From an uncultured Azospirillum sp. (GTDB taxonomy: Bacteria; Pseudomonadota; Alphaproteobacteria; Azospirillales; Azospirillaceae), in the NCBI GenBank assembly GCA_966212305.1, contig CBIHQY010000030.1:9018-73017 (forward strand): a stretch of DNA of 64,000 nucleotides, in the 5' to 3' direction. Position numbers and translations under genes: made by a program. The notes below the pieces were generated by a model that was given only the letters and a program-made list of their open reading frames with translations, did no database searches and was not told the DNA's origin. Positions 82 to 41,902 of this stretch are shown piece by piece (the stretch's first letter is position 1; each line of letters begins with the position of its first letter).

Positions 82-591
82 ATGCGCACCGCACTGTCCA
101 TCCTCTACCGAACCGCCGAGATTCTGGGCGCGGTTTCGCTCGCCGCCATCGCCGTCCTGATCGTGACCCAGGTGGCGAGCCGCCTGTTCGACCGCATGGT
201 GCCTGGCGCCGACGAGCTGGCGGGCTACTGCATGGCCGCGTCCTTCTTCCTGATGCTGGGGCCGGCGCTGCGCCGCGGCGCCCATATCCGCGTCGGCGTG
301 CTGGTGGACCGGCTCCGCGGCGGCCCACGCCGGGCGCTGGAGCTGCTGTGCCTGGGCTTCGCCACCGCGCTCAGCGCCTATTTCGCCTGGTACTGGGTGC
401 GCATGACCTATGATTCCTATGATTTCGGCGATCTCAGCCAGGGCGTGCTGCCGATCCCGCTGTGGATCCCGCAGGCGCTGATGGCGGCGGGTCTGGTGGT
501 GCTGGTCATCGCCTTGATCGACGATCTGCTGGCCGTGCTGCAGGGGCGCGACGCCTCCTACCAGCATGCCGGCATGCAGAGCGAGGGCTGA
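82..591 (+). CDS. TRAP transporter small permease (DctQ-type)
   Basis: 169-aa hydrophobic ORF. AGGAGG at 66-71 lies 10 nt upstream of the ATG. The stop is 3 nt before the large-permease start, the classic small/large TRAP pairing. Confidence 0.8.
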   Translation: MRTALSILYRTAEILGAVSLAAIAVLIVTQVASRLFDRMVPGADELAGYCMAASFFLMLGPALRRGAHIRVGVLVDRLRGGPRRALELLCLGFATALSAYFAWYWVRMTYDSYDFGDLSQGVLPIPLWIPQALMAAGLVVLVIALIDDLLAVLQGRDASYQHAGMQSEG

Positions 592-594
592 GCG

Positions 595-1896: not shown

Positions 1897-1907
1897 GGAG
1901 CGAAAGC

Positions 1908-3685: not shown

Positions 3686-3720
3686 CGCCCCCTGCTGTGA
3701 CGGACACCCGCCGGGGCGGG

Positions 3721-18738: not shown

Positions 18739-19023
18739 TCAGGCTGCCACGGCGGGCAGGCTGACGAGGGGATCATCGCCGTCAGCGCCTTCTCGGCCAT
18801 CCGCCGCGGCTCCAGAAAGCCTGGAAAGCTGGAGCCCTTGCGCAAGTTTGGCAATGCACAGCTCGACGGTGCCGGCGCGGCTCTCCCAGTCGCGATCCCG
18901 GTAGCCGTTGCGCTGGACCAGCCGCTCGGCGGCAAAGCCGATCATCTCGCGCAGAACATCGGCATCCGCGCCCTTCTCAAGCATCGCGCGAAGCGCCGTC
19001 ATCTCATCGGCTATCGTGGTCAC
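18739..19023 (-). pseudogene. IS256-family transposase remnant (frameshifted, internally deleted)
   Basis: N-terminus ...LEKGADADVLREMIGFAAERL..QRNGYRDRDWESRAGTVELCIAKL. A second frame continues RKGSSFPGFLEPRRMAEKALTAMI. The ORF ends DDPLVSLPAVAA, which matches the usual IS256 C-terminus. The whole catalytic core is missing. Confidence 0.65.
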
Positions 19024-19851: not shown

Positions 19852-20301
19852 CTACAGCACCGTGCGGGCGGCATCAAGGCGGTTGTGCCGGACGGCGTCC
19901 TCGATGGTGGCGACGGCGTCTAGCTCGGCTTGGACCCACCGGGCGATCTCCTCCGGCCCCCGCTCCCCGCCCAGGGCACGCGCCACCTCCGCCCGTTCCA
20001 GCTCGCCGAGCAGGATCGGTTGGAGGAGGGCGCGGAGCGCGCAGGTGTCGATGGTGCCGGCCAGCATGACCTCGCCGAGGAGTGCGAGCACGGCATCGAC
20101 CATGACGCTGAGACGCCGCCCTCGCTGCCGTGCGAGGTCGGCCATATTTGTCCGCAAGGAGAGACGTATCTCCCGATCGGCGCATTTTTCCGAAAAATTT
20201 TTGAGAGTGCCGTCCTCACCGGCGGTGACCCCGCATGCCGGCAGGATCCGGCGCCACCAATAGACGGAACCGCGGCGGTAGAGGTGAGGGGCAAGCGGCA
20301 T
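19852..20301 (-). pseudogene. N-terminal fragment of a tyrosine integrase of the same type as the intact island integrase
   Basis: MPLAPHLYRRGSVYWWRRILP...EIRLSLRTNMADLARQRG parallels MAHRHPNLRLQGSIWHFRRRVP...EIVRSLRTGDRLMAAARA of the 612-aa integrase. Only 149 aa, with no catalytic domain. Confidence 0.6.
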
Positions 20302-20433: not shown

Positions 20434-20450
20434 TGGTTGGGGGACTAGGA
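20434..20450. repeat. attL-type direct repeat TGGTTGGGGGACTAGGA
   Basis: Exact 17-bp match to 58442-58458, which is the 3' end of tRNA-Gln including CCA. Confidence 0.8.
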
Positions 20451-20813: not shown

Positions 20814-21152
20814 TCAGCGGTTCTCCGGCATGCGCGCGAGCTCGTTGATCAGGTGGCCGTATCGCTCCGGCGGGAAGTGCCGCGGGTCGGCCGCCATCGT
20901 GCGCAACACAGCGTATCCCGACGCCGTGAAGCGCGCGGGAAGTGCAACCCGGTACCTTCGATTGTCATCAGCCCTCGCTCCATCATGCTCTCGACGGCGA
21001 CCGTCAGCTTCGGCTTGTCCTTCTTCGGATCGGTGGCCCAGCACTTCAGCGGGATGCCGTCCGTAAGCCGTGGCGGCTCAGACCAGCGGAGCATGGAACT
21101 CGCGGCGAAGCAGGTCGCGCTCGGCGGGGGTGAATTCCGGGGTGTCCGTCAT
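20814..21152 (-). pseudogene. Small conserved-looking ORF broken by two frameshifts
   Basis: Three consecutive reading frames give MTDTPEFTPAERDLLRREF.., then MLRWSEPPRLTDGIPLKCWATDPKKDKPKLTVAVESMMERGLMTIEG.., then ..ARFTASGYAVLRTMAADPRHFPPERYGHLINELARMPENR. A second small frameshifted ORF follows at about 20601-20814 with a TGATG overlap. Confidence 0.3.
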
Positions 21153-21638
21153 GGCGGCGACCGATAGCACCTGTGACGGCTAGTCTAACAGTGCCATGGG
21201 CATCCAACCCGTTGTATGGCAGCGTGATGGCATCCGGCCAGATCAGGATATGCTCTTGCGAATGGCGTAATTACTGCTGCCGACGCCCCGCGCGGAGTCG
21301 GCAGGGCCGCAAAGTGCGCAACCAGCGCGCACTTGTCCCCGCCAGAGAGGATCGAGCAGCTGACGACCTCTCCCCAACATTCAAACAGTAGGTGTGTCAC
21401 CGCACTGCCTCGTTTTGACGCATGTGATGACCAATGCGGCGGCCCTGTTGCAATACAAGTAGCATCCCGTCGGCAGGGTGACTCGGTTTTTCCCTGACAA
21501 AGTGAACAGGAGCTTTCCCGTCAACTGGACCGGGAGCGCTCAGACACTTGGCCCTAAATTATTCGCCTCCGCGGTGCGGCGGAAAAAATAACCGTTCTGG
21601 GCGATTGGGAGCGCCCCACTCAGCTATCTAAACTAAAG

Positions 21639-22502
21639 TTAGATCAGATTTATTATGCATCCTGCTAGTGCATTGATCATTGCTGCGGCGTTTGGAGACG
21701 GTGATGGTGGAATTGTTTGCGTGTCGAGGTGCGCTTGATCGCAGAGTGCAATACTGTATTTCTTTGATAGGCGTGTGGCGCTTGAGGTAGGGTTCCCGCA
21801 ACCAGATATTTCTCTCTTTGAGACCAAGAAATGAGCCTTGCTCTTATTGAGTGAAATAGCGCCTTGCGTAAAAACGATTTCTGTTTCATTTGGCCTTTTG
21901 CATTGCACCTGCATGTAGTCGCCCTGGCCTAATCCGTAAACATATTTACCATCCGTTGCCACATCACATTCAACAGCGCGGGCCATTACTTGCCTAACGA
22001 CATCCACACTGAGGGTGCTATCAACATATTTGCATTCTACTGTTACGATGGGGGCGGATTCTGGATTACCTGCATTCGAGCCCGAGCGAATTGCCGTGCC
22101 AAGCCAGCGAGGGATCAAAGCAATATCAAATTCATGACTTGCTCCGCTAATTCCTAAGAACTCCAAGCTGTTATGAATTTCATATTCTCTACCCTCGCGT
22201 TCCAAATAAATGAATCCTGGGGTTCCTCGTGAACTGGCGGGGTGCAACTGCCCAGGCCCCCCTCGAAGTACAAATGTACGATTGGAGCTATTCAGCCGAC
22301 GCCCTGAACAATCACACAAAATAACAGAAACGTCCGGGTGCGTGTTGATGGTTGAGCAAAGCATTGCTAGCAACCAAAACTCGTATTGCTTTCCGTATTC
22401 CGTCACCGTTGAGAGTCTGGCGCTCTGCCCCGACATAATGGTTATTTGTGAATTAGCAATTGCGGCAAGCATCGTCCTGATAGTATAAAGCATGGTATTC
22501 AA
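21639..22502 (-). CDS. Hypothetical protein, PD-(D/E)xK nuclease-like candidate
   Basis: 287-aa ORF in a visibly AT-richer block. Candidate core: E in EYGKQYEFWLL, D in HEFDIALIP, ExK in IVTVECKY, followed by a helix VVRQVMARAVE. The likely start is the internal MLYTIRT. Confidence 0.6.
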   Translation of the reverse strand: MNTMLYTIRTMLAAIANSQITIMSGQSARLSTVTEYGKQYEFWLLAMLCSTINTHPDVSVILCDCSGRRLNSSNRTFVLRGGPGQLHPASSRGTPGFIYLEREGREYEIHNSLEFLGISGASHEFDIALIPRWLGTAIRSGSNAGNPESAPIVTVECKYVDSTLSVDVVRQVMARAVECDVATDGKYVYGLGQGDYMQVQCKRPNETEIVFTQGAISLNKSKAHFLVSKREISGCGNPTSSATRLSKKYSIALCDQAHLDTQTIPPSPSPNAAAMINALAGCIINLI

Positions 22503-22530
22503 CCCTCCTTTTTTGGCCTATAATGCGTTC

Positions 22531-23148
22531 CTATGCCGGACTCGGCCGCGGGATAATGTCTGGGGCAGCTTCTGGTTCTTCGTCTGTGCTTGTAGGATCA
22601 GGATTGCTTTGCCGCGGAGTGCGCGTGTTTACAGAGGAGGACGGGTTTGTCGATTGGGATGCGCCAGACGGACCCCGCCCGGGGTTACGGGGTGATGGTC
22701 CTTGTTGAGGACTACCTCCCTGAGGTCCCTGGGGGGCAGAGCCGGGATTTGGTGGTGTTCTTAGAAAATCCACGAATTCGTCGAATCGATTGATGAAGGT
22801 AATAATGTCATTTTCTCCTTTATCATCGTACGCTGGTCTAGCGACCTGAGAGGATTCATCATAAACGATTAGAGAAATTTTATTATCAGCAATTTCTCTA
22901 AAACTGTCACGTGCCAAAGTGAACATTTGGAATGGGTCCTTGAGATGATGACGGACTGCTTCCGCCACGATCTTTGCTTGCTCATCAAGATCGTATTCAG
23001 AAATGCGTCGGGACAGCTGCCTTGGTGAGCGAGCTATTGCTGGGGCGAGTTTTAGCCTTTGTATGATGTCGTTTGCAACGTGGTCGAGATTAAAGGCGCG
23101 GAGTTCGCGAATGAATGCCACAATGTTGGGGCCAACAGGAGAAGGCAT
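22531..23148 (-). CDS. Hypothetical protein with disordered Pro/Gly/Ser/Gln-rich C-terminal tail
   Basis: 205-aa ORF 28 nt upstream of the nuclease-like ORF on the same strand, with the same AT-rich composition. No recognisable motif. Confidence 0.6.
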   Translation of the reverse strand: MPSPVGPNIVAFIRELRAFNLDHVANDIIQRLKLAPAIARSPRQLSRRISEYDLDEQAKIVAEAVRHHLKDPFQMFTLARDSFREIADNKISLIVYDESSQVARPAYDDKGENDIITFINRFDEFVDFLRTPPNPGSAPQGPQGGSPQQGPSPRNPGRGPSGASQSTNPSSSVNTRTPRQSNPDPTSTDEEPEAAPDIIPRPSPA

Positions 23149-23844
23149 CTTTTTTTGTCTCCTTTTTGTCCGCTATCGCATATCCCTATGCAACTCGTGT
23201 TTCAAGAAAATTCGGCGATAGGGGCCGCGAGGTTGTTGATGGAGCGAGGAGCGGTCAATTCAGTAAAGCTGCCATACCTCCGTACTGAAGGTTCCTGCTA
23301 CTCCTGAGCTAATTCGTCGTGGCTAAGCTCAATCCCGGCGCGGGATTGTGTTCCATAATGTCCGGAGTTGTCGAAATTCGCTGCGGCGATCATGCCCTCC
23401 GGCGCCATTGCGACCTTGCGGTCGAGGAGCAGCGATGCCTTCGAATTGCGCAAACTGCTGTGCGAGAGGATGGGCCGCAACCTGCTGGGTGCAGGGCTTC
23501 CGTCTAGCCTTCTATGATCCTGCCAGAGGTTGCTATCACGCGAGATGCAACAATAGGGTGGCTATCTGACGCCTGCACCGGGTCCGCTATGCAGAAGTAG
23601 CGACCACCAGGCAGGCCGCCTCCTTGACAGACATCTCTGGGACCGCTCAACACTAGATGATCACCCTGTAAAGCTGGCTGCCGGAGGGTCGCACTCCGGT
23701 GAAGGCCATTCTGCTTATGCGGCACTCTGTCGAGTAGAGGGTGGACGCGTTCAACACACGGTATGCCACACGGAAGCGCTCACCATTGCCTCTCAAATCG
23801 TCTGCGGTGCAGGCGACGGGCGAGCGCCCGCCGCCTACCTTTGG

Positions 23845-25035
23845 TTACCAATTGCGCAGCGTCTTCCATCCGCCCAGCAGCGGCGAGCCCTGCTCCTCCT
23901 CCAGCCTGCCGCCTCGCTCCGCCTCCCGAACATGATGGCGGTGATCGACTTCCGCCAAGTCCGCGCGTACCTCCTCTTTGACCTCGCGCAGCCATTGCGG
24001 CGTGAGTGCCTCAATCTCGGCCTCGGACAGACAGTCGCACTCGGCATCGACGACACGGCGGATCAGGGCCTCGCGGAACTCGGCCTCCTCAATCTGTCGT
24101 CGCCCCTCTGGCGTCTCGCGGGCGTAGCCCGGACCAGTGTAGAAGTCTTTGGGCGGCCAAAGCTGACGCTTAGGATTGGCCGTGAAGACGTACATCTTGA
24201 TAAGGCAGGGATCTACGTGAACCGGCGTGCCGTCGAGGTCGCCCAGGTCGTACGGGCGCAGGAACCCTAGGCGCCGCCCGTTGCAGAGGGCCGGGACGTC
24301 AGTCAGCGCCCCTCGGACGGCCTTTAAGAGATGCGTGGGGCGCATTGGCGACCGTTTGTAGCCGATCGCGGCGGCGAGCTCGTCCGCCGCGAATTCGATA
24401 ACGATATCCTTCCTGAAGTCGTCCGCGGCTGGGGCATGCAGGGCCGCCAAGTGAACAAGGCGCACGCCGTAGGCCCGTCCGCAAGCGCGGACCTCCCCCA
24501 AGTTAAGGCGGGCGTAAGGTATGGGCGAGACGATCGCGTGGCGCAGCGGCTCCGGGATCTTGTAGGTGAGCCAGCCCGCGCAATCGTGGTTCGCCCGCTC
24601 AATGACGGAGCATGCTATCGCGGGCCGGGTGCCGTCGGCGCCCGTGGCACTGAAGACAATGGTTGTGGTGGCAATCTCCTCGACCACCACCATCACCTCG
24701 CCGGGTCGCGGCAGACGACCGCCGTTGGGCGCTCTCAGGAATGCCGCAAGGTGTCGGAGTTCGACGCGAACGGTGGTCGCGTCCGGCCCCGCGGCATAAG
24801 CGTAGGCCAGCAGCAGGTCTGCAAGCTTCATCGCAGCCAGCGACATGATCCCGCTCGGCAGATGCAGATCGAGCGTCGCGCGTGCCCGCGGAACACGGAC
24901 CGCGTGGTCACCCGGGAACCCCCGGGCGGCCCATGCCTTCAGAGCCGCCCTGAGGTCCAGGCGCGCCCGGACGTCCTTGGGGACGTCGTGCTCCACCCTG
25001 TCCTTACACATGTCCGCCGCCTGATCCATCACCAT
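23845..25035 (-). CDS. Hypothetical protein, possibly a replication-initiator-like winged-helix protein
   Basis: 396 aa with good GC3 bias. The segment YARLNLGEVRACGRAYGVRLVHLAAL...IEFAADELAAAIGYK...LLKAVRGALTDV loosely resembles Rep-type winged-helix repeats. This function call is weak. Confidence 0.6.
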   Translation of the reverse strand: MVMDQAADMCKDRVEHDVPKDVRARLDLRAALKAWAARGFPGDHAVRVPRARATLDLHLPSGIMSLAAMKLADLLLAYAYAAGPDATTVRVELRHLAAFLRAPNGGRLPRPGEVMVVVEEIATTTIVFSATGADGTRPAIACSVIERANHDCAGWLTYKIPEPLRHAIVSPIPYARLNLGEVRACGRAYGVRLVHLAALHAPAADDFRKDIVIEFAADELAAAIGYKRSPMRPTHLLKAVRGALTDVPALCNGRRLGFLRPYDLGDLDGTPVHVDPCLIKMYVFTANPKRQLWPPKDFYTGPGYARETPEGRRQIEEAEFREALIRRVVDAECDCLSEAEIEALTPQWLREVKEEVRADLAEVDHRHHVREAERGGRLEEEQGSPLLGGWKTLRNW

Positions 25036-25815: not shown

Positions 25816-26464
25816 CATCAGACGGTGCTAAATCGTAGTGAATGGCGCCGGTGTTTCGGGTGCCGACACCATCGGAGGCGTTGGTACGTCTCAATCCCGC
25901 CGGGGACTAACATAAGAAGATCTGGCGTCCCCGTCCGCCCCGTTCGGGAAGGGCCGTCCCCGTGCCTGTCTCCGGCTTCTGCGCGCTGGACGATCGTCCA
26001 TCTCCGTGTTCGCCGCCGGAGCCATTGGGGGCATGGCGACGATGTCCTCCGCTGTGTACCGTCCCGGCGGAGCCGGGGTGGTGTTGGGGGAGGCCCTGTC
26101 GCGAAGCGCAGGCGACGACAAGCGCCGCGTCAGCGAGCCGCCGAACCCCACGAGGTCGGCGACAAGAGGGGCAGCCATTCCCGGCCCGTGAGGCGCCCGT
26201 CGTCCACCGGGAGAGGCGGGGTGAAGGGCCGTGCCGCGATGCCGTCGATGGCGCGCAGTGCCGGGTGACGACCGTCGCATGGATGGTAGCCGCCTTCGTG
26301 GACGCGTCGGCAACAGTAGGGGCGCAGTCGTCCCGGCTAGTGACAATCGTTCGCCTACGCACGATAACGGCGGGAATGGCCCAGGTAGACGGCCGCGACA
26401 TTCCGCCCTTTGTCGAGCGCCCGCTGTCGCGGCTACCGTCGCGCCGCCAAACGGGAGGGTGCTC
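25816..26464. repeat. Tandem repeat copy B (about 0.65 kb), ending at the methyltransferase start codon
   Basis: Imperfect copy of 25158-25815, with a ~65-bp indel between the second and third conserved blocks and a diverged 3' part. Confidence 0.7.
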
Positions 26465-29446
26465 ATGGCGGACGACAAGGACGTGGGCGGCGATGCGCCG
26501 CAGGAGGAAAGTGTCATGCCTGACGCCGTCGTTCCGGAGGGAGGGGAATCCGCCGCCGCTTCCTACCCCCTTCTTCCCGTGGTCCCGGAGGTGCGGCGGT
26601 TCGACTATTCCAAACTCGATCTGCCGAAGACGGTGCGCACGGAGATCGCGAACACTGCGGTCGAGATCCGTTCGGCCATGCGCCGGACGTTGGACGACTG
26701 GAAGCTCATCGGCAGCAGATTGGCCTGGGTCAAGGATCGACTGCCCCACGGGGCTTGGCTGCCGTTCCTGGAACTCGAGTTCGGCCTCAGCGACAGGCAC
26801 GCGCGGAACTTCATGACCGTCGCAGCCTTCATAAGCCGGAAGGAAGCGGAAGTTTTTTCCGATTTGCCACCCTCAACGGTGGCGGTCCTGGCAACGGCTC
26901 CAACTCCTGTTCAGGAGGAGGTAGCCGGGCGGCTGCGCCGGGGCGAACGGCCGTCGTTCACCGAGATCCGCGACTTGGCCAAGCATACCCGCTCGTCGGC
27001 CCGGACGGCGCGCCGGACCTCGGACGACCGTCCGTCGCCGACGGCGCCGCGGAAGTTGCCCGAGCATCTCTGGACCCCTGTGGACGGCGAGGAAGACGAC
27101 TTCGACACGGAGACGATCGAGGACCACACCAACCCGCCGGACGACCCGGACCTCTTCATTCCCCTGCACGACGTCGGCGTGACGCTGGACACCGCGGCGG
27201 CACTCGGCCTGGAGGAACTGGCCGCCGACTGGGGCGTGTCACCGGGGGCCGCGGTGCGGCGGCTCCTGGAGTGGGCGGACGAGAGCTACACTACGATTCC
27301 GCCGCCCTTGCCGACCTACCGATGCGACCGCCGAGCTGACTTGGCGGATCAGGCGTGCCGGATGCGGGTCCGGTACGTCAGCTTCTTTTCCGGGATTGAG
27401 GCCGCCCTGTCGGTGGCGGCGGACCGGCACCGCTGGGACGCGGCGGCGGTCTGCCAGTACGAGCCGCCGAGCAAGGCCCCGGAAAAGAAAGGGCAGTACG
27501 CCGCGACCGTCCTCACCGAGCGGCTGCCTCCGTCGGTCGCCAACCTGGGCGACGTCACCGGCGTTCAGGCGTCCGATCTCCGGGGCGTGGAAGTCATGGT
27601 CGGCGGCTCGCCGTGCCAGGCGTTCTCCGCCGACGGGTTGCGGCGCGGCGTTATGGACCCGCGTGGAATGCTGACGCACACGTTCGTGACGCTGGCCACG
27701 AAGGCGGACTGCCGCGTCAGCCGGGAGGGCATTCAAGGCGTGCCTGTGCTCCTGTGGGAGAACGTCCCCAACGTGCTGGCGCTTCACTATTTGGCTCCGC
27801 CGCCGAAGAACGCCGGGAAAAAGACAGACGGGGCGAACTTCGACGACCGCCAGGACGTCTTCGGCTCGGTGCTTGCCGTGCTGTCGGGCGCATATGACCG
27901 GGGAACTGTCATTCCGCGCCCCCGTACGACGGTCCGTAACCGCCGCAAGGGCACGGAGCGCATCGACCTGGAAAGCTGGCCGCGCGCCGGTTACGTCGCC
28001 GGACCCACGCGCCTGCTCGCCTGGGCCGTCCTCGACCCGGTCGCCTTCGGTCTGCCGCAGGCACGTGAGCGCGTCTATCTCGTCGCCTGCCGCCGCGGCG
28101 ACGGCCTCGATCCGCGGGAGATGCTGTGGGAGCGCCCTCCAGCGCTTGACCGGCCGTACTGGTCCGAAAACGGCACCACCGTCTGGCTGTTCGACGGCGT
28201 CCGCACAGGACCGGCCGTCCCGGCATCGCCGGGAACCGTGCGCGCCGCCTTGGCGGCGGCGTTCGTGCGAACCGGCATCGACCGGACCGGCGATGCGGCA
28301 TCAACGGAGGAGTCGCCCGCGGTTCCGCCGTCCGGGTCCGGAAAGCGGTCCCGCCGACCGAAGGGCGGGCAGCCTCAGGCGGCCCGCCTCGCGGCGCTGC
28401 GGTCGATCGTGCGGAAGACCGGGGAGCGGGAGTACGACCCCGGGGAGGACGTCCAGGAGCACGACGTTCCGACGGCGACTTACCACGGCAACGCCCAACC
28501 CGAAACCGGGCACGAGGCCGACTACCTGATCGCGCCGGAGCAGGCGGCCAACATCCTGGCCAATGTCGGGCGCAAGCGGAACGCGGACAGGCTCGCGCCG
28601 TGGGTGCGGACGCTCCTCGGCGCCGTTCACGAACAAGGCGCCGTCCTGCCACTTGACGCAATCCTCTTTAAAGACGACGAGCGTCAAGCGTTCGAGGAGG
28701 CGATGGCGTGGTGCGCGGACGCCGTGCTGCTGCACTGGTCGAGCAAGGGTGGCGACCTGACGGTGCGCACCGGGGCGGACAAGGGCCATATGCTGACCCT
28801 GAAGGCAAAGGCCGGGAGCGGCCCCGCCGAGCGCTCGCTGGTGGTCCGCCGCGACGGCGACCGCGTGTGGGTGCGCACCATGATGCCGGTCGAGGGCGAG
28901 AGGCTGATGGGCGTGCCGGACGGCTGGACCCAGCTGCGGAAGTGGGACGGCGGTTCTGCGGACGGGGAGACGAAACGGCGGAAGTCCCGCGCCTCGCTGC
29001 GCGCACACGCGGAGAACGCCCGCTTCTTCGTCCTGGGCAACTCGCTGATGGTGGGCATGATGGACTGGCTGGTCGGACGGATCGACGCCGCCATCCGCCG
29101 GGCGGCCGCCGACGGTGCTTTCCGTCCGGAGCGCGGCGCAGGCATCCGGAACCACTTCGAGGCCACGAAGGACGACGCCCGCCGCCGGGCGGCGCAGGAG
29201 AAGCCGAAGGAGACCGAGGGCGACTGGAAATCGCCACCGGCGCCGAACAACCGGGGAGCCGGTGCTCAGGGGTTCCGCATGTGGCTTCGCGCTCAGGCCA
29301 AGGACATGACAACGGACGAGATCCGCAACCGCGCCGTCATTTGGCCGTGGTGGTCGAAGGTGCTGGCCGAGAGGACGGTCGGCGATCTGCGGGAGCATGC
29401 CGAGGCCGTGGAGCGCGAACGCACGTCGCCGGACGTTCCCGAGTGA
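26465..29446 (+). CDS. DUF3102-like N-terminal domain fused to a DNA (cytosine-5) methyltransferase
   Basis: N-terminus: IGSRLAWVKDRLPHGAWLPFLELEFGLSDRHARNFMTVAAF (DUF3102-like). MTase motifs: FFSGIEAA (I), GGSPCQAFS (IV), LWENVPNV (VI), RLMGVPDGW, LGNSLMV (X). The ATG at 26465 is chosen over the upstream shadow start at 26231. Confidence 0.85.
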   Translation: MADDKDVGGDAPQEESVMPDAVVPEGGESAAASYPLLPVVPEVRRFDYSKLDLPKTVRTEIANTAVEIRSAMRRTLDDWKLIGSRLAWVKDRLPHGAWLPFLELEFGLSDRHARNFMTVAAFISRKEAEVFSDLPPSTVAVLATAPTPVQEEVAGRLRRGERPSFTEIRDLAKHTRSSARTARRTSDDRPSPTAPRKLPEHLWTPVDGEEDDFDTETIEDHTNPPDDPDLFIPLHDVGVTLDTAAALGLEELAADWGVSPGAAVRRLLEWADESYTTIPPPLPTYRCDRRADLADQACRMRVRYVSFFSGIEAALSVAADRHRWDAAAVCQYEPPSKAPEKKGQYAATVLTERLPPSVANLGDVTGVQASDLRGVEVMVGGSPCQAFSADGLRRGVMDPRGMLTHTFVTLATKADCRVSREGIQGVPVLLWENVPNVLALHYLAPPPKNAGKKTDGANFDDRQDVFGSVLAVLSGAYDRGTVIPRPRTTVRNRRKGTERIDLESWPRAGYVAGPTRLLAWAVLDPVAFGLPQARERVYLVACRRGDGLDPREMLWERPPALDRPYWSENGTTVWLFDGVRTGPAVPASPGTVRAALAAAFVRTGIDRTGDAASTEESPAVPPSGSGKRSRRPKGGQPQAARLAALRSIVRKTGEREYDPGEDVQEHDVPTATYHGNAQPETGHEADYLIAPEQAANILANVGRKRNADRLAPWVRTLLGAVHEQGAVLPLDAILFKDDERQAFEEAMAWCADAVLLHWSSKGGDLTVRTGADKGHMLTLKAKAGSGPAERSLVVRRDGDRVWVRTMMPVEGERLMGVPDGWTQLRKWDGGSADGETKRRKSRASLRAHAENARFFVLGNSLMVGMMDWLVGRIDAAIRRAAADGAFRPERGAGIRNHFEATKDDARRRAAQEKPKETEGDWKSPPAPNNRGAGAQGFRMWLRAQAKDMTTDEIRNRAVIWPWWSKVLAERTVGDLREHAEAVERERTSPDVPE

Positions 29447-34045: not shown

Positions 34046-36997
34046 CTACAGCTTTACCTCTTTGAGACTGGTGACCACATCAAAGTTGGCTCCGATCGTC
34101 TCAAAATGGCGCTTTCCGCAGGAGACTTTCTGGTTCTCTTTGTTCCGACGCTCCTCTTCATCCAACGTGCTCTTGGTCTCGCGGACAAAGTAGAGCTTCT
34201 CATCGCGCTCGGTGACGAATGCCCAGTCCGGGTTATAGGGGCCAATGGGCGTGTCGATCCTGAACCAGGACGGCAATTTAATGAATAGCTTGACATTTTC
34301 GCTGTCGTCCAAGTCCTTGGCGAACAGCCGCTCGGTTTCGGATTCGAACTCGATGTGATCGAACAGGCATTTGTCCTTGTTCTGCACCTCATACAGGCTA
34401 CTGAGGTAGCGGACGATGCCTTCCTCAGCCTCCTGCTCGATACGGCTCATTTCCCAGAACTGACCGGCGACCTTTTCGTATTGAATGCCTTCGAGCATCA
34501 AATCGTGCAGGGCCGCACCGATCTGCTTGCCCACCTGGGACATGAAAGACTGAGGGTTTACCTTGAACTCATCCAGCCGTCCGCTCTGCTTCAGGATTTG
34601 GACTAGGGTGTGCCGAGTAAGCTCGATTTCCTTTTGCAGGTAAGCGAGTATATCCGGAAGAACCGTGACAGGCTGTACATCGTAGGTGCGCGAGTCCAAT
34701 TCCCGGTCGGCGGCGACGCCAGCTTCGGTGATGTCGATATCGCGCTTGCTGATGGCGATACGGGCGGGTTCAATCTTCGGAATCTTGGTCCTGATACGCT
34801 CCACCGCCTTGGCGATCAGGTCAGCAGTCTTAAACGTAACCCGGTAGCGGGTGCGCTGGCTGATCTTTTCCCACAATGCCTGAAAGTCAGGGTGTAGTTG
34901 AACAGCCTTGCGGAACTTCACTTCTTTCCGCTCACGGGCATTGACCACCCGGTTTTTGAAGAGGCGTTTCTGAAGCTCGTCCACAATTTTGGCTTTCAGG
35001 TCGGCGAACTCCGCCGGAACCTTCAAGTCGAAGCCTGGCTTCTTCGGGTCGAACTTGTCGAGGATTTCGCCTGCCCCATTGATGTAGCCATTGGCCTTCA
35101 GTTCGCTCCAAATGCGGGTCGAGATCTCCTGCCCGATGGGGGCTTCGGTGCCGTTGGGAGCCGGACGCACCAGCTTGGCGAAGTCGATCTTCTCGATTTT
35201 GCCGAACTTGATTCCGAAATCCTCCTCGAATTCCGTCTGGAGCTTCCGGGCAAAGTCTTCATAGGACTCGTTAGCAATGACCGTCAGCCGGTTCACCGAC
35301 TCATCGTGAACCCGTTCGCCCTTGTCGTTAACTGGAAGACGCAGACCTCGCCCAATCTCCTGGCGCTTCCGCTCCACCGACTGACTTTCGTTCAGGGTGC
35401 AAATCTGGAAGACGTTGGGGTTGTCCCAACCTTCGCGCAGGGCGGAATGGGAAAAGATGAAGCGTAGCGGTTCAGCTGGGTCCAGTAGCCGCTCCTTGTC
35501 CCGCATGATCAACGAATAGGTGTCTTCGTCGTCGGCAGTCTTGCCGCTGGTGTCCTTGGCCCGGCCCTGCTTATCCTGCGAGAAATAGCCGTCGTGGACC
35601 TGCGACACATCGAAAGGGATCAACCCCTTGTAGATGGGCTTGGCGGCAAGTTCGAGGAGCGCTTCCTCAAACCACTGTCCAATCTTGCCGAGGCTGGTGG
35701 TCCCGTCCTCGTTGTAAATGCGGTAGTTGGCAACCTTGTCGATGAAGAACAGGGAAAGGACCTTGATGCCTCGGCCGCGGAGGGCACGCTCCTTGCGAAG
35801 GTGTTGTTCGACAGTCTCGCGGACCTGGGCCTTCATCACGTCCTCGCCCTGCCCACCGACTTCCTGGCCCAACTCAAGATAGCGGCCCTGGTTGAACTCG
35901 ATAAACTCGGCACCTGGTGTGCAGTCGATGTCCTGGACGATATAGCCCTGCCGGTAAGCTTGGCGCTCACCGGACTTCAGATACAAATCATCGCGCTTTT
36001 TGACCCAAGCCTTCGCGACTTTGGGGCCGTCCTTGCCTTCCTTGTGGAATTCCACCTGAGCCTTGATGCCGTTGGTGTTGTCCACCTTCAGCAGCTTCAC
36101 GTAGGCGTCATTGAAGCTGTCTTCCGATCGGACCGACGCCACCTCGATGCGCTTCACCAGTCTTAGGTCGTAGGCTTTGATCGGGTCCAGGCGGTACAGC
36201 AGGTTATGGGGATCCTTGTGAGTCGCGCTGTAACGAAGGTTCGCCGCCGGATTGAGGTTGGCGATGGCACGTTTGGATTTGGGGGTGTTATCGACGCTTT
36301 GCGGTTCGTCGATGATCACGATGGGGTTGGTGGATTGGATGAATTCGATAGGCTTTCGGCCCGACATCCGGTCGTTTTCGCGGTTGATGACGTTCAGCTT
36401 CTTCAATTCGTCCTCAGTCATCTCCGACACGTCCTTGTCGGGCACATCCTTCTGGAAGCTTTGGATGTTGATGACCATGATCTGGACGTGGTTGCTGCTA
36501 GCAAACTGCCGCACCTTGCCCAGCCGTTTGGAGTCGTAAACGAAGTGGTCGAACGGAACCTTGTCGTACAGGGTCTGAAAGTGCTCCTTCATCACATCCA
36601 GGCTCTTCAGCACACCTTCGCGAATGGCGACACTGGGCACAACGATGATGAATTTCTTGAAGCCGTAGTTCTTGTTTAGCTCAAAGATGGTGCGGAGATA
36701 GACATAGGTCTTGCCGGTACCCGTTTCCATTTCCACGGAAAATTCGCGACCCTGCAAGGTGTTCACGCGTTCGATGTCATTTTTCTCCTGGGTCTTGTGG
36801 ACGTTGGCAAGCATAGCCTCGTCGAGGAGGTCGATGCGGTTGCCGACGCCTAGCTCCGTCAGCGCCATCCCGGCCTGACCGGATGCCATGCTGATCTCGA
36901 AGTGGGCAGCCTGGATCGGCTGCCCATCGAAGACGTTGACCACTGCCTGAATGGCGTCCTGCTGGTACTCCAGCGAAGGGTCAAACTTGAGCTTCAC
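34046..36997 (-). CDS. res: Type III restriction enzyme Res subunit (helicase plus C-terminal PD-ExK nuclease)
   Basis: 983 aa. Starts MKLKFDPSLEYQQDAIQAVVNVFDGQP. METGTGKTYVY (motif I), IIDEPQS (II), LREGWDNPNVFQICTL, and a C-terminal YNPDWAF...VRETKS nuclease motif. Confidence 0.9.
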   Translation of the reverse strand: MKLKFDPSLEYQQDAIQAVVNVFDGQPIQAAHFEISMASGQAGMALTELGVGNRIDLLDEAMLANVHKTQEKNDIERVNTLQGREFSVEMETGTGKTYVYLRTIFELNKNYGFKKFIIVVPSVAIREGVLKSLDVMKEHFQTLYDKVPFDHFVYDSKRLGKVRQFASSNHVQIMVINIQSFQKDVPDKDVSEMTEDELKKLNVINRENDRMSGRKPIEFIQSTNPIVIIDEPQSVDNTPKSKRAIANLNPAANLRYSATHKDPHNLLYRLDPIKAYDLRLVKRIEVASVRSEDSFNDAYVKLLKVDNTNGIKAQVEFHKEGKDGPKVAKAWVKKRDDLYLKSGERQAYRQGYIVQDIDCTPGAEFIEFNQGRYLELGQEVGGQGEDVMKAQVRETVEQHLRKERALRGRGIKVLSLFFIDKVANYRIYNEDGTTSLGKIGQWFEEALLELAAKPIYKGLIPFDVSQVHDGYFSQDKQGRAKDTSGKTADDEDTYSLIMRDKERLLDPAEPLRFIFSHSALREGWDNPNVFQICTLNESQSVERKRQEIGRGLRLPVNDKGERVHDESVNRLTVIANESYEDFARKLQTEFEEDFGIKFGKIEKIDFAKLVRPAPNGTEAPIGQEISTRIWSELKANGYINGAGEILDKFDPKKPGFDLKVPAEFADLKAKIVDELQKRLFKNRVVNARERKEVKFRKAVQLHPDFQALWEKISQRTRYRVTFKTADLIAKAVERIRTKIPKIEPARIAISKRDIDITEAGVAADRELDSRTYDVQPVTVLPDILAYLQKEIELTRHTLVQILKQSGRLDEFKVNPQSFMSQVGKQIGAALHDLMLEGIQYEKVAGQFWEMSRIEQEAEEGIVRYLSSLYEVQNKDKCLFDHIEFESETERLFAKDLDDSENVKLFIKLPSWFRIDTPIGPYNPDWAFVTERDEKLYFVRETKSTLDEEERRNKENQKVSCGKRHFETIGANFDVVTSLKEVKL

Positions 36998-37010
36998 TTG
37001 TCCCTCCAGG

Positions 37011-38993
37011 TCAGACGGTTTTAAACACGATTTCGCTTTCCTGTGAGGCGGCTCGAGCTTTGAACGTCTGTACGGCGTTTGCTTTTAGCTGATCGTTTCC
37101 TTTGAAAGCCCGGTCCAGGCATATAACTTGGAATGGCTCTCGATCTGCGAGTGCATCTATTAACTCGGGAGTAATTTCGTTTTCCAAGCAGATCAGCAGT
37201 ACGCCTCCGGCAACAGAAAAGGCGGTCGCCTCTCCAACCGTCATGCTATCTATTGAAGCTGTCAGAGGAAATCCCGCTTTAATCAGAAGCTCGTAGAGAA
37301 TTGAGATATGGTCTGCATTCTCAGCAATATGCTCAATGTGAAGGTCAAGCTGTGCTTCCAATTCCGCGCTGACGCTTCCGTCCCAGTTCTTGAAATTTGA
37401 TGCGGCTAGCTTGAAGTGCCGAAAGCCCATATCAAGTTGAGACACGATGAGCGGGTCTGTATTACTTCTAATACTTTCTATCGCCTTTTGCACTCTGTGG
37501 GTGCAGACTTCGCCGATATTGTGCAATCCCATTTTGTAGGCAACTGACTTTTCACTGCAAGCCTCTGGAAGTTGTATCAACATGAACTTGCGGCGGCTGT
37601 TTTCTTCCGCATTAAGTTGCAAGACTGCGTGGGCCGTAGTGCCCGACCCTGCGAAGAAATCCATAACAATGTCATCAGGCCCAGTAAGATACCGGACCAG
37701 ACGCTTAATATCGTTCCAATTCTTTGGGTTATCAAACGTCTTGCTGCCGACGAGATCGACAAACTCCATGGTGGCAGTTTGAGCATAGCTATAGAAAACA
37801 GACGGCATTAGCTGTTGGTCGCTCTCAAACAAGAAGCGACATTGTCTTGGCAATGTGTTGTGATTATCGCCAAAAACGATTCGTCCAGCAGTAACTTCCT
37901 CCCAGAACCGCTCAGGGGAAGGGTGCCGCCACCCGCCGTCTGGGATCTTACATGGCATTTTTGTGATTGGGTGGAGAATCTCATACCGAGGCCCACCACC
38001 TCCGGGCCAGGAAATATCTCCGTCGTCTCGGTATGGGCCTTTGGGGCCGATCTTCGAGAAGCGTCCTAGCTTCTTCCGATGATCGGACGCAGGGATGGCA
38101 TTGAAGAATGCTCTCCACTCTTCCTGGATCGCGTCGTAATCATTGCCATAGCTTGAGACCAGCTTTTTGTAAAAATCCCGCGCCTCTTCGATACCATCTT
38201 TGGGTTCACGGAGAATTATCCCTTGCTCCTGAAGATGTCGAGCGCTGTTCGCGTATACAAGCATGTATTCATGGCCTACAGAAAAGTATCTAGCATCATT
38301 TTTCCGGTTCTTATCCCATACTAGAGTGGAAAGATAGTTCTCCTGACCAAAAATTTCGTCGCAAACGAGTTTTAGATTCGCGTATTCGGCATCATCTATG
38401 CTGATGACAAGGAATCCATCCTCTTGCAGTAGGTTCTTGGCCAAGAATAGGCGTGGGTACATCATGTTCAGCCAGCGAGAGTGAAAGCGCCCGGACTGTT
38501 CCGTATTGGTAGAGAAACGCTTTCCATCCTCGGCTACTTGCCCAGTGTAGCGGAGATAGGTATCGATATTTTCGGAATAGTTGTCCGGGTAAATGAAATC
38601 ATTCCCGGTGTTATAAGGAGGGTCAATGTAAATGAGCTTAACCTTTCCATAATAAGATCTCTGAAGTAACTTGAGAGTCTCGAGGTTATCCCCCTCTATA
38701 ATAATGTTTTCTGAATTATCGAAATCGATGGATGAGTTTGGATTTGGGCGGAGTGTGGCAGTGCTAATCTCTTGGATAACCCGAGTGCATTCAGCTTTTC
38801 CCGGCCAACCAAGGCCGAATCGCTCTTTTCCTGGGTCAACCCATTCGCCAAGCAACCTCTTCAGTTTATCGAAATCGATCCCGCTCTCGGTGGCGATCTC
38901 GGGGAATAGGCTTACCAGTTGCTGGCGCTTCTCCTCAGTGACCTTCATAGAGGTAAGCTGCATCTTCTCGGGCATGTCCATGATGTTTTCCAT
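37011..38993 (-). CDS. mod: Type III-like DNA methyltransferase Mod (beta-class amino-MTase)
   Basis: 660 aa. LIYIDPPYNTGNDFIY (motif IV) lies N-terminal to VMDFFAGSGTTAHAV (motif I), the beta-class order. The start ATG shares one nt with the SNF2 stop. Confidence 0.9.
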   Translation of the reverse strand: MENIMDMPEKMQLTSMKVTEEKRQQLVSLFPEIATESGIDFDKLKRLLGEWVDPGKERFGLGWPGKAECTRVIQEISTATLRPNPNSSIDFDNSENIIIEGDNLETLKLLQRSYYGKVKLIYIDPPYNTGNDFIYPDNYSENIDTYLRYTGQVAEDGKRFSTNTEQSGRFHSRWLNMMYPRLFLAKNLLQEDGFLVISIDDAEYANLKLVCDEIFGQENYLSTLVWDKNRKNDARYFSVGHEYMLVYANSARHLQEQGIILREPKDGIEEARDFYKKLVSSYGNDYDAIQEEWRAFFNAIPASDHRKKLGRFSKIGPKGPYRDDGDISWPGGGGPRYEILHPITKMPCKIPDGGWRHPSPERFWEEVTAGRIVFGDNHNTLPRQCRFLFESDQQLMPSVFYSYAQTATMEFVDLVGSKTFDNPKNWNDIKRLVRYLTGPDDIVMDFFAGSGTTAHAVLQLNAEENSRRKFMLIQLPEACSEKSVAYKMGLHNIGEVCTHRVQKAIESIRSNTDPLIVSQLDMGFRHFKLAASNFKNWDGSVSAELEAQLDLHIEHIAENADHISILYELLIKAGFPLTASIDSMTVGEATAFSVAGGVLLICLENEITPELIDALADREPFQVICLDRAFKGNDQLKANAVQTFKARAASQESEIVFKTV

Positions 38994-41902
38994 TACTGTA
39001 TGGAATATCGGATGGTGAAAAGGTGTTCTTCGGCCACCTGCTGGCGAAGGCGCTCCTCCACTTCATCCAGTAAGGCGTCCTTCTGGGCTTCCAGTCTACG
39101 GGCTGAGGCATCGTATTCGCGCCACGCCTCGTCCCGCTTTTGCTCGAATGTCTTGACCTTTCGTTGCAGTGCCAGCTTGTCGGGCAGATTTCCGGTCTGG
39201 CGCGCTTCTTTCTTCAGCGCCTTGATCTCTTCCTCAAACTCCTTGAACGCGAACTTCAATCCGGCCCGCTTGTCCTCGGCCCACTTGTCCAGCTTGTCCA
39301 TTTCTTCATCGAACCATTCAGACTGGCGTTGCGCGAGATCGTCGAGGATGGTCGACTTAGTGGTCTCAATGGCTTTTTCCAACTTGCCGCTCCTGGCAAT
39401 CCCCTCAGAAGCGGCACTGGCGCATGGAAGCTCGAAGAGCCTGCGCACTGCATCGGGTTCAACGGCCGTTCCGTCGTCCGCGACAGCAGCGAGAATGATA
39501 TGATCCTGCTCATCTGCTCCGGTGATGGAGAGGCGATGTGCGGTCAGCAGACCGGACTTGCCGATAAGCGGTTCGATAGCCGCCGCCTTCCGGCCCCAAC
39601 CCGAATAATCGAACGCCAGCTTGGCCCCGTTCAGCGGACGCTCCGCTGCCGCTTTGAGGATGTGCTGGGCCAGAGGGTGGCCAATGCGGAAGCGATGGCC
39701 GTGTTCGTCGTCTTTGGACAGGTGATAACGGCCCTTCGACACCGACACACCAGCGGGCAGCGAGGCAAGATCGAAGGACAGGCAGCCGTCGTCGAACCGC
39801 GCGTTCTGAGCAAGTTCATGGCGGGTGATCGTCCACAGCAGGCTCTCGTACCTGCCGATATACTCGCGGCTCTGTGACAGGCTGAGCTTCAAGCGGTCGT
39901 GAACCTCAGCGTCGAAGTTCTCCAGCAGCTTGCGGCGCGTATCATCCATCGTTTCCTTGATCTGCTCGTCCATCTCGGCCCGAAGCGCCGCGAATGCCGC
40001 CTCGATTTCGTCGGTGGTCCGGCAGGTTTGATAGATGGCGACGATGCGCTTCTCGAACTCCACACCTGACTCGATAGCGCCGAGAACCTCATCGCTGGCA
40101 CCGAATACGCCACTGAAAAGCTGGAACTTCTCGGCGAGAAGCTGGTGTACGCGCACGTCGGCAGCATTGTTTTTATTCAGGAAGTTGATCACCACCACGT
40201 CATACTTCTGACCATAACGGTGGCAGCGCCCGATGCGCTGTTCAATCCGCTGAGGGTTCCAGGGGAGGTCATAGTTGACCACCATTGAGCAGAACTGAAG
40301 GTTGATACCTTCAGCCGCCGCCTCCGTGGCAATCATGATAGATGCGCTGTCCCGGAAGTGCTCCACCAGGGCGGCACGCATGTCGGCGGTGCGGGAGCCG
40401 GTCACCTTGTCGCTGTCCCTGTGGCGGGCAAGCCACTGCTCGTACATGGCCCGCGATTGCGGGTCGGCATTGGTGCCGTTGAACAGGACAACCTTGCCGT
40501 CGTAGTCGTTGGCGAACAGGAGTTTGACGAGGTACTCCTGGGTGCGGCGAGACTCGGTGAAAATGATGGCCTTCTCGCCCCCGCCAAGGTCCTTAATCTT
40601 AGAGAACCCGGCGCGCAGGGCATTCAGCAGGGCTTGCCCCTTGGCATTTTCCGTCACCGAAACGGCGAGGTCGCGGAACGCCCGAAGATCGGCGATTTCC
40701 CCCTCGATGGCAGCAATGTCGTCCTCGCTGAGGAGAGCAGGATCGTCCTCGTCATCGACCCACTCATCCACCGCCTCGGCCAGCCCCTCGTAGTCCTCGG
40801 AGATCTCCTCGACCTCCTCGGCCTCCAGGTTCTCGTGCAAGGCTCGGTCGTCCTTCAGTTGACGCTCGAGCTTACGGGCAAGGGAGTCCAGGGCGCCGGC
40901 GATGGCGAAGGTGGACGATGCCAGCAGCTTGCGCATGATCAGGGTCATGAGCGTGCGCTGGCTGGACGGCAGCGCTTGGAGGCTGGGGCGGCGCAGATAG
41001 TCCGAAACGAGGTCGTACAGGGTTTGCTCTGCTTCGGTCGGCACGAACTCCTGAAGGATGGGCAGACGCTTGGTATAGCGGATGTACTCAAGAACTTGCC
41101 GACGGAGCGTGCGGTGGCAAACCGCGGTCAGGCGAGCCTTCAAGTCACGGTACAATTCATCGCCGGTCAATCGGGCGAACTGCGCACGGAAGCTCTTGGC
41201 GTCGCCAAAGGTGTACTCGTCGATGATGCTGACAAGGCCATAGAGCTCCATCAGGGAGTTTTGCAGCGGGGTGGCTGTCAACAGCACTTTGGGGGCGTTG
41301 GCGAGGGCGTTCTTGAGCGCGCGGCCAATTCGGTTGTCGGGCCGGTAGACGTTGCGCAGGCGGTGCGCTTCGTCGATCACTACAAGATCCCAGCGCATCA
41401 CCATCAGTTCGTCGGCGTGGCGGGCCGCGAACTGGAAGGAGCACAGGATGATGCAAGGCTGCTCGAAGGGCTGGCGGACGCTGTCCTTCTTCATCTGGTT
41501 GTAATTCTTGGCCTCAAGGATGATGCTCGGCAGAAAGAATTTTTCCTGGAGCTCCTGGGACCACTGCTTTCTCAGGTTGGCCGGGCAGATGATCAAGAGC
41601 CGACGGCGGCGCTCGGACCACTTCTGCGACAGTACGAGACCAGCCTCGATCGTCTTGCCGAGACCAACCTCATCAGCGAGGATCGCGCCCTTGGAGAGCG
41701 GCGACTTAAAAGCGAACAGCGCAGCTTCGACCTGATGTGGGTTCAGGTCTACCTGGGCGTCCAATAGGGCATTGACGAGCTTTTCGGCGTCGGCAACCGA
41801 CTTGCGGCGTAGAAGTTCATGGGCGAACAGCTTGGCGTGGTAATCGGTGATGGCGCTCAAAGGCATAGCCCGCCTACCGCCATCAACACGGTCCAATGGC
41901 AC
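38993..41902 (-). CDS. SNF2-family helicase with a ~330-aa C-terminal extension
   Basis: 969 aa. ILADEVGLGKTIEAG (I), VVIDEAHRLRN (II), LLLTATPLQNSLMELY (III), ATEAAAEGINLQ..NYDLPWNPQRIEQRIGRCHRYGQK (V/VI). The C-terminal part includes a Lys/Glu-rich coiled coil. The start may be the internal MPLSAITDYH. Confidence 0.9.
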   Translation of the reverse strand: MPLDRVDGGRRAMPLSAITDYHAKLFAHELLRRKSVADAEKLVNALLDAQVDLNPHQVEAALFAFKSPLSKGAILADEVGLGKTIEAGLVLSQKWSERRRRLLIICPANLRKQWSQELQEKFFLPSIILEAKNYNQMKKDSVRQPFEQPCIILCSFQFAARHADELMVMRWDLVVIDEAHRLRNVYRPDNRIGRALKNALANAPKVLLTATPLQNSLMELYGLVSIIDEYTFGDAKSFRAQFARLTGDELYRDLKARLTAVCHRTLRRQVLEYIRYTKRLPILQEFVPTEAEQTLYDLVSDYLRRPSLQALPSSQRTLMTLIMRKLLASSTFAIAGALDSLARKLERQLKDDRALHENLEAEEVEEISEDYEGLAEAVDEWVDDEDDPALLSEDDIAAIEGEIADLRAFRDLAVSVTENAKGQALLNALRAGFSKIKDLGGGEKAIIFTESRRTQEYLVKLLFANDYDGKVVLFNGTNADPQSRAMYEQWLARHRDSDKVTGSRTADMRAALVEHFRDSASIMIATEAAAEGINLQFCSMVVNYDLPWNPQRIEQRIGRCHRYGQKYDVVVINFLNKNNAADVRVHQLLAEKFQLFSGVFGASDEVLGAIESGVEFEKRIVAIYQTCRTTDEIEAAFAALRAEMDEQIKETMDDTRRKLLENFDAEVHDRLKLSLSQSREYIGRYESLLWTITRHELAQNARFDDGCLSFDLASLPAGVSVSKGRYHLSKDDEHGHRFRIGHPLAQHILKAAAERPLNGAKLAFDYSGWGRKAAAIEPLIGKSGLLTAHRLSITGADEQDHIILAAVADDGTAVEPDAVRRLFELPCASAASEGIARSGKLEKAIETTKSTILDDLAQRQSEWFDEEMDKLDKWAEDKRAGLKFAFKEFEEEIKALKKEARQTGNLPDKLALQRKVKTFEQKRDEAWREYDASARRLEAQKDALLDEVEERLRQQVAEEHLFTIRYSIQ

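Follow-up and report, generated by a model that had tools for sequence, protein, structure and literature searches.

A conserved, unnamed gene pair encoding a candidate divergent Mrr-type nuclease and an acidic partner on an Azospirillum genomic island

Comparison with described nuclease systems

Mrr is a Type IV, modification-dependent system with the catalytic domain Mrr_cat (PF04471), and it offers the closest described comparison for a gene pair that we analysed in a stretch of 64,000 nucleotides (nt) from an uncultured Azospirillum sp. (contig CBIHQY010000030.1; the whole stretch is called the window below). The pair consists of two open reading frames (ORFs): ORF-A, which would encode a partner protein of 205 amino acids (aa), and ORF-B, which would encode a PD-(D/E)xK-type nuclease. 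The ORF-B family shows the same order of elements as Mrr, namely a helix with (F/Y)E, an S-G...D strand, an (E/Q)xK strand, a helix and a 'TT..(F/L)S..A' strand-helix. Like Mrr, it would need no cognate methyltransferase, and it is found beside other Type IV systems (GmrSD and McrBC-like genes). Unlike Mrr, however, its core is interrupted by two large insertions, and the Pfam threshold is reached by no native member. Moreover, the third catalytic position is E rather than the Q of Mrr, the invariant H120 and the near-invariant E121 have no Mrr counterpart, and a separate acidic helical partner gene stands in place of a fused N-terminal winged-helix DNA-binding domain.

The two-gene nuclease candidates of PADLOC-DB v2 (PD-T4, PD-T7, PD-Lambda, PDC, HEC, Shedu, Hachiman HamA and others) are likewise small operons with a PD-(D/E)xK-type effector, located on mobile elements or in defence islands. 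The systems of PADLOC-DB v2.0.0 differ from the pair in that none of the 5027 models matched the proteins of the window or, apart from four single-member matches at E ~0.03 without meaning, 141 relatives of ORF-B. Type II toxin-antitoxin (TA) and nuclease-inhibitor pairs form a general class for comparison. As in these pairs, a small acidic protein is encoded upstream of a potentially harmful nuclease and is translationally coupled to it. The pair differs from them in that no DNA-binding domain can be recognised in the partner, which also exceeds typical antitoxins in size and, in at least one lineage, forms a single chain with the nuclease. In the literature we found no description of the pair, although a text search cannot prove absence. 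We consider the pair a real, conserved and unnamed module, which makes a credible candidate defence system.

The nuclease candidate, its partner and their coupling

ORF-A and ORF-B both lie on the minus strand. An earlier, sequence-only reading of this DNA had reported two co-oriented ORFs of 205 and 287 aa that are 28 nt apart, which agrees with the ORF list (23148..22531, 205 aa, from ATG; 22502..21639, 287 aa, from TTG). The 287-aa frame exists, but a start at ATG 22493 shortens ORF-B to 284 aa and widens the gap to ORF-A to 37 nt. This ATG is almost certainly the true start, not TTG 22502, because the Shine-Dalgarno sequence AGGAGG lies only 1 nt from the TTG and 10 nt from the ATG. Public gene calls in sibling assemblies likewise give 284 aa for ORF-B, and their ORF-A call is identical. 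Residue numbers of ORF-B refer to the 284-aa form throughout; those of the 287-aa form are higher by 3. Around the pair, no promoter or terminator was convincing above shuffled expectation, and no Rfam element was found in the flanks of the cassette.

The base composition of the pair is foreign to its surroundings. G+C (guanine plus cytosine) content is 48.7% in the pair versus 67.6% in the flanks, and G+C at third codon positions (GC3) is 0.43 and 0.45 versus 0.79-0.85 in neighbouring genes. The low-G+C core of about 1.7 kb has 49% G+C within DNA of 68% G+C. These values bear out the earlier impression that the two genes look separately acquired. Within ORF-A, the C-terminal tail has a G+C of 0.61 versus 0.45 for the N-terminal domain; a different origin of the tail, or its Pro/Gly codon content, may lie behind this.

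A perfect 13-nt inverted repeat at 20973-20985 and 23237-23249 (CCTCGCTCCATCA / TGATGGAGCGAGG) flanks the low-G+C cassette. About 0.1 such pairs are expected by chance in the region, and the repeat may be meaningless.

Neither ORF-A nor ORF-B matched Pfam, NCBIfam, PADLOC or PDB sequences, and a word-indexed search of 5.8 billion proteins returned for each of them self matches only. The impression that ORF-B is an ORFan was overturned by an exhaustive HMMER search: phmmer against 1.84 billion cluster representatives retrieved 164 relatives at E <= 1e-3, including 48 at E <= 1e-10. The relatives are mostly ~250 aa long and align over residues 25-185 of ORF-B. In a 58-sequence alignment, E38, E105, G114, H120, E121, D123, E153, K155 and R167 are invariant. 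Across 141 relatives, H120, D123, E153 and K155 remain so, and at least 90% of these sequences retain E38, P80, E105, G114, S116, E121, R136 and R167. The pattern HE.D-(20-45)-E.K is found in nearly all retrieved members. D123 and E153 are 30 residues apart, and the order E38...D123...E153-x-K155 is that of the PD-(D/E)xK superfamily. All conserved residues are intact in the window copy. The motif residues that the sequence-only reading had singled out, namely E in YEFW, D in HEFD and an ExK about 30 aa further on, proved to be invariant or near-invariant columns of the family. Two insertions are specific to the family. One, of ~45 aa, carries an R-G-G-P-G motif and separates the first strand from the HExD strand; the other is variable, with 30-50 aa, and precedes the last strand. 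No family member matched the NCBIfam models tried, or Pfam at threshold.

One relative, P0093 from Caulobacter flavus (loci L008/L009), belongs to a UniRef cluster that one source labels 'RES domain-containing protein'. This label looks like an annotation error, because RES is not among the Pfam matches listed for the family.

The sole recurrent Pfam match of the ORF-B family is Mrr_cat, which was found in five of the 141 members, weakly (best E 0.013), and not in ORF-B of the window itself. A family consensus without the insertions matched Mrr_cat at E 4.7e-5 over profile positions 13-98 of 115, with 23.9 bits versus a gathering cut-off of 21 bits. Since the trimming was chosen with the expected topology known, this match shows collinearity and is not an independent discovery. 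For hhalign, E. coli K-12 Mrr was combined with twelve homologues, of which eleven came from plasmids and one from a viral contig, into an Mrr_cat alignment. The full ORF-B family matched it with 50% probability (E 1.6e-4) over the ExK strand, the next helix and the 'TT..S..A' strand-helix, and a looser alignment threshold extended the match to 111 columns. In the extended alignment, G-x-S-G-x-x-H-E-x-D sits on S-G-D-G-G-I-D of Mrr, which places D123 on the catalytic Asp and ExK on the QxK (Q-A-K) of Mrr. Removal of the first insertion at 16 boundary choices gave probabilities of 60-68% (E 5-9e-5), and a reversed-profile decoy gave 0.2% (E 0.3). Against the single E. coli Mrr sequence, the family reached a probability of 8%. 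A scan of viral contigs for Mrr relatives yielded close homologues only. Additionally, the family profile touched a single nuclease-like PDB entry, 1y88 (AF1548), which we take to have a restriction-endonuclease-like fold, at a non-significant E of 1.1, with the ECK strand and the following helix-strand-helix aligned. Mrr_N or another DNA-binding domain was found in none of ORF-B, ORF-A and the partner consensus. Taken together, these comparisons indicate that ORF-B is probably a divergent PD-(D/E)xK protein of the Mrr branch that carries two insertions, and the PD-(D/E)xK-like core proposed from the letters alone has gained a link to Mrr_cat by profile methods, at modest significance.

The loci of ORF-B relatives were recovered through exact-protein look-up, pattern scans of genomes and metagenomes, and plasmids. 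Wherever a locus includes upstream DNA, a co-oriented ORF of 133-183 aa ends at the start of the nuclease gene or runs into it. This partner is directly upstream and homologous in all 20 of the 20 distinct related loci with readable upstream DNA, as well as in the window, and the junction is most often a 4-nt overlap of the ATGA type. Across the related loci, nothing beyond the pair is conserved in synteny.

The earlier statement that ORF-A belongs to no recognisable family is true of the libraries searched, but it does not hold for the N-terminal domain. Pairwise BLAST of ORF-A against distant partners gave no match. BLASTP against the partner from L011, the locus of the closest nuclease relative, gave E 7e-6, the aligned 60 aa being 32% identical. 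In hhalign, a partner profile from which ORF-A had been left out aligned to residues 6-99 of ORF-A (84.6% probability, E 6.8e-6). A partner hidden Markov model (HMM), also built without ORF-A, found ORF-A at E 1.6e-5 to 3.7e-5 in a background of ~1,500 sequences, where it ranked right behind the true partners. These true partners included three loci outside model building, and the next unrelated ORF scored E 0.14. Overall, residues 6-119 of ORF-A align to the partner profile. The isoelectric points (pI) of the partners are 4.3-5.1 and that of ORF-A is 5.4. A tblastn search of plasmids with the partner consensus gave no match, possibly owing to low-complexity masking.

The Pro/Gly/Ser/Gln-rich tail described earlier is present as stated: 75% of residues 131-205 of ORF-A are P, G, S, Q, T or N, and no tandem repeat was found in this segment. 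Such a tail is absent from most partners, and shorter P/S/T tails occur in L020, L025 and L027. The alignments thus indicate that the N-terminal domain of ORF-A belongs to a conserved partner family and that only the tail is lineage-specific.

None of the related loci examined has one gene without the other, and at least one relative joins them into a single gene, as would be expected of the linked pair that the sequence-only reading had proposed. This relative, P0149 (431 aa), carries the nuclease domain at residues 181-340, and residues 1-108 resemble the stand-alone L030 partner (E 3e-15); the protein is a true natural fusion of partner and nuclease. In five close locus pairs, the identities of the A and B proteins track each other (0.94/0.95, 0.89/0.93, 0.91/0.91, 0.82/0.81 and 0.82/0.82). 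Long-range co-divergence in a mirror-tree comparison was uninformative (Spearman 0.02), with both genes in the twilight zone. When five close pairs of relatives were compared, the ratio of nonsynonymous to synonymous substitution rates (dN/dS) was 0.13-0.5 in both genes, and both genes are under purifying selection.

Genomic company, proposed function and alternatives

Relatives of the pair are found next to a range of defence genes. In the chromosome of a Reyranella sp. (L014/L051), a complete PD-Lambda-5 system precedes the partner gene by 7 nt on the same strand and shares one low-GC block with it. The locus of the fused form P0149 (L031) carries two SIR2 genes, AbiTii, a STAND NTPase and an AAA_15 ATPase. 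A Roseomonas plasmid (L029) carries a McrBC-like pair and VapC, with an S-adenosylmethionine (SAM) methyltransferase nearby, and a Sphingomonas plasmid (L030) carries SbcCD/YhaN-like genes. L012 contains an HNH gene and a Gp49/HigB toxin gene. In L033 (positions 1-3912), the relative of the pair lies next to a cluster in which two DndB-like genes accompany a TGT-like gene, the signature of Dpd-type 7-deazaguanine DNA modification systems. GmrSD and Avs-like genes are among the neighbours, and when 52 ORFs from the surroundings of the pair in 12 further loci were scanned together, matches to the mREase_IV, MTase_II, TmtA, HEC-06 and Orf5 models were added. The island of the window itself encodes ArdC and a Type III restriction-modification (R-M) system with an SNF2 helicase. 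L004 and L008 show the backbone of an integrative and conjugative element (ICE) or a plasmid, with TrbI, CagX, RepC-like, ArdA and ParB genes.

In the Reyranella locus (L014 1051-4675, equal to L051), PD-Lambda-5_A, PD-Lambda-5_B, partner and nuclease form a co-oriented low-GC3 block with gaps of 4-15 nt. PD-Lambda-5_B is there a D12-class N6A-methyltransferase-like gene, and the public gene call of L014 missed the 183-aa partner gene.

The pair is mobile. It is found on ICEs and plasmids and, in the window, on an integrative mobilizable element (IME). Three to four of 72,556 plasmids carry the ORF-B family, and RefSeq labels these copies hypothetical; none of 50,697 phage records contains it. 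Among the hosts identified, Alphaproteobacteria predominate (Reyranella, Azospirillum, Roseomonas, Allosphingosinicella, Brevundimonas, Caulobacter, Sphingomonas and Polymorphobacter), with one gammaproteobacterial host, Dyella. The window shares its G+C deficit with its two closest relatives (-16 and -11 points), and more distant family members have host-level G+C. Because the strong deficit is limited to the window and these two relatives, the pattern fits a recent horizontal spread of the sub-clade of the window.

The genes studied here are real, conserved and co-inherited, evolve under purifying selection, encode invariant catalytic-type residues and recur in defence neighbourhoods. We infer a fold, a nuclease activity, an A-B complex, a gating role of ORF-A and a function in defence. 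In the account that we favour, and hold to be somewhat better than an even bet, the pair is an unnamed two-component nuclease defence module carried as mobile-element cargo. ORF-B would most likely cut DNA in a metal-dependent manner via D123, E153 and K155, aided by E38 and H120/E121. ORF-A, small, acidic and helical, would be its obligate, stoichiometric partner, with a synthesis that keeps pace with that of the nuclease, because the two genes are translationally coupled in most loci and fused in at least one. ORF-A would most likely bind the nuclease and gate or target its activity; since it is acidic and has no detectable DNA-binding domain, gating or sensing is more likely than reading DNA. 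Judged by its genomic company, the module, which integrative elements and plasmids carry as cargo and spread horizontally, would most likely act in defence against phages or other DNA entering the cell.

Several points weigh against this account. The Mrr_cat score above the cut-off came from a hand-trimmed consensus, and no native member reaches the threshold. The hhalign probabilities reach just 50-68%, with the score drawn mostly from the C-terminal half. PDB sequence and profile searches gave no significant match to a solved structure. Single-sequence AlphaFold2 models were unusable, with a predicted local distance difference test score (pLDDT) of 33.4 for ORF-B and 58 for ORF-A, and we place no weight on the fold-compatible order of secondary structure in ORF-B. 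Support for P0110 as a second fusion is weak. In the window, ORF-A and ORF-B lack translational coupling, with a 37-nt gap and a separate Shine-Dalgarno sequence for ORF-B. A-B binding and the direction of regulation are likewise what we infer. Finally, the case for defence is one of guilt by association, and several contexts are plain ICE or plasmid backbone (ArdA, ParB and type IV secretion system (T4SS) genes).

A type II TA or addiction module, with ORF-B as nuclease toxin and ORF-A as a labile acidic antitoxin acting by direct binding, is unlikely but is the competing explanation that survives best. Such a module would stabilise its element, with abortive infection as a possible side effect. 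The gene arrangement suits it well: a small acidic protein is encoded directly ahead of a nuclease-like protein that is larger and often basic, the two genes usually overlapping by 4 nt, and a small gene in the position of an antitoxin gene is found upstream in every locus. The carriage of the module by plasmids, ICEs and an IME is also consistent with addiction, as are the other TA genes close by in some loci (VapC in L029, Gp49/HigB in L012). However, a natural fusion of partner and nuclease is hard to square with a separately degraded antitoxin, a partner of 133-183 aa is large for an antitoxin, and no partner has a detectable DNA-binding or other antitoxin-type domain. Nor did any TA-family model match in PADLOC, Pfam or NCBIfam.

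In a further and rather improbable version, the pair would be a self-guarded restriction enzyme, whose acidic partner, possibly a DNA mimic, occupies the DNA-binding cleft of an Mrr-type nuclease and holds the enzyme inactive. The partner would be displaced or degraded once an invader brings in a protein with affinity for such mimics or disturbs the complex in another way, so that infection would be sensed via the system's own inhibitor and not via DNA modification. The split form, the fused form and the variable disordered tail could then be different tunings of a latch.

We give equally little credence to a function that serves the element itself, whether in DNA processing or in anti-defence, with the pair as, for example, a structure-specific resolvase, an exclusion nuclease, or an acidic DNA-mimic anti-restriction protein teamed with a nuclease. 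Some relatives do lie beside ArdA, ParB, RepC-like, Toprim primase-like and T4SS genes in ICE or plasmid regions, the island of the window encodes ArdC and a relaxase, and the marked acidity of the partners recalls that of known DNA mimics. Nevertheless, synteny with transfer or replication genes is not conserved, the pair alone being so; many loci are classical defence islands without conjugation genes; and the absence of the family from phage records also speaks against it.

It is very unlikely that ORF-B is a solitary Type II restriction endonuclease, with ORF-A as a small regulatory protein and a methyltransferase elsewhere, for example the C5 methyltransferase of the same island. That gene (26231-29446, plus strand) encodes a DUF3102-like N-terminal fusion, and its called start is ~3.3 kb from ORF-A, in agreement with the distance and opposite strand noted earlier. 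The PD-(D/E)xK-type core of ORF-B and the presence of this gene would fit such an enzyme, as would the adjacent D12 methyltransferase-like PD-Lambda-5_B in Reyranella and the SAM methyltransferase near the pair in L029. Yet no methyltransferase lies next to the pair in the window and none is consistently adjacent across the set of ~20 related loci, which upholds the earlier view that this is not a standard Type II R-M unit. In addition, the partner has no helix-turn-helix of the C-protein type and is twice the size of such a protein, and the C5 methyltransferase gene of the window, besides its opposite orientation, resembles the host in G+C and has an unrelated gene between itself and the pair. 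The missing library annotation and the self-only matches of the word-indexed search might suggest that the ORFs arose by chance in AT-rich foreign DNA or are remnants without function, but this is effectively refuted by the strong Shine-Dalgarno sites, the 164 relatives with invariant residues and a conserved partner, a dN/dS well under 1 in relatives and the intact conserved residues of the window copy.

The host element and the significance of the pair

The nuclease-partner pair, which we continue to favour as a defence module, is located on an island of ~38 kb (Table 1). The 17-nt 3' end of a tRNA-Gln gene, at 58442-58458, is repeated directly and exactly at the left island end, and the cassette begins ~1.2 kb inside this left attachment (att) repeat, just within the left end of the island as the sequence-only reading had placed it. 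The island is an IME, because the tRNA-Gln direct repeat is accompanied by an integrase-like ORF, a NikA/MobC-like gene, a relaxase gene and ArdC. No T4SS genes were seen on it.

Table 1. Positions of the gene pair, its conserved residues and the features of its host island in the window
Feature	Position	Strand	Basis or remark
ORF-A, 205 aa, partner of the candidate nuclease	22531..23148	-	ORF from ATG, Shine-Dalgarno, same call in sibling assemblies
ORF-B, candidate divergent Mrr-type PD-(D/E)xK nuclease, 284 aa	21639..22493	-	Relatives, conserved columns, Mrr_cat link
ORF-A residues 1-130, conserved partner domain	22759..23148	-	Mainly helical (low-confidence model only); pI 5.6
ORF-A residues 131-205, Pro/Gly/Ser/Gln-rich tail, lineage-specific, probably disordered	22534..22758	-	Composition
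Shine-Dalgarno AAGGAG of ORF-A	23159..23164	-	10 nt 5' of ATG 23148
Shine-Dalgarno AGGAGG of ORF-B	22504..22509	-	10 nt 5' of ATG 22493
E38 codon of ORF-B (GKxYExW helix), candidate first acidic residue	22380..22382	-	
H120-E121-F122-D123 of ORF-B (HExD strand)	22125..22136	-	Conserved columns, hhalign
E153-C154-K155 of ORF-B (ExK strand)	22029..22037	-	Conserved columns, hhalign
Low-G+C tract carrying ORF-A and ORF-B	21600..23300 (approximate)	.	G+C profile
attL-like 17-nt repeat of the tRNA-Gln 3' end, left island end	20434..20450	.	Exact match to 58442-58458
tRNA-Gln	58442-58515	-	
DUF6538-type integrase-like ORF, 612 aa	56493-58331		Adjoins tRNA-Gln
NikA/MobC-like gene	51591-52145		
MobA/VirD2 relaxase	50285-51652		
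ArdC	49062-50165		
Type III res, C-terminal RE_endonuc domain	34046-36997		
Type III mod	37011-38993		
SNF2-family helicase	38993-41902		

Upstream of ORF-A, on the same strand, lies a 396-aa ORF (23845-25035) with host-like G+C and no Pfam match; it was rejected as a member of the module, having no homologue in the related loci. The large C5-cytosine methyltransferase resembles the orphan methylases that are frequent on conjugative elements. A second low-G+C block (34046-41902, 0.48-0.61) holds the Type III R-M genes followed by the SNF2-family helicase gene on one strand, and these may form a composite defence system. A further sharply low-G+C stretch at 46902-47984 (0.47), with a 360-aa ORF without a Pfam match, may be more foreign cargo. 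Just outside the left att repeat are a truncated DUF6538 fragment of 149 aa (19852-20301) and a fragment of an IS256/Mutator-family transposase (94 aa, 18739-19023), which look like leftovers of an older element at the same site.

If the pair protects its hosts against phages or plasmids, it would be a compact two-gene addition to the defence repertoire. Its members stay 'hypothetical' in pipelines such as NCBI's PGAP, as no Pfam, NCBIfam or PADLOC v2 model that we tried recognises them; the family alignments and conserved residues reported here suffice for building a detection model and for designing point mutants. The window copy illustrates how cargo is placed just within the att site of a tRNA-Gln integrative mobilizable element. 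Moreover, with separate, coupled and fused forms available for comparison, the family would offer a clean genetic setting for the question of how a dedicated partner restrains a potentially self-destructive nuclease.

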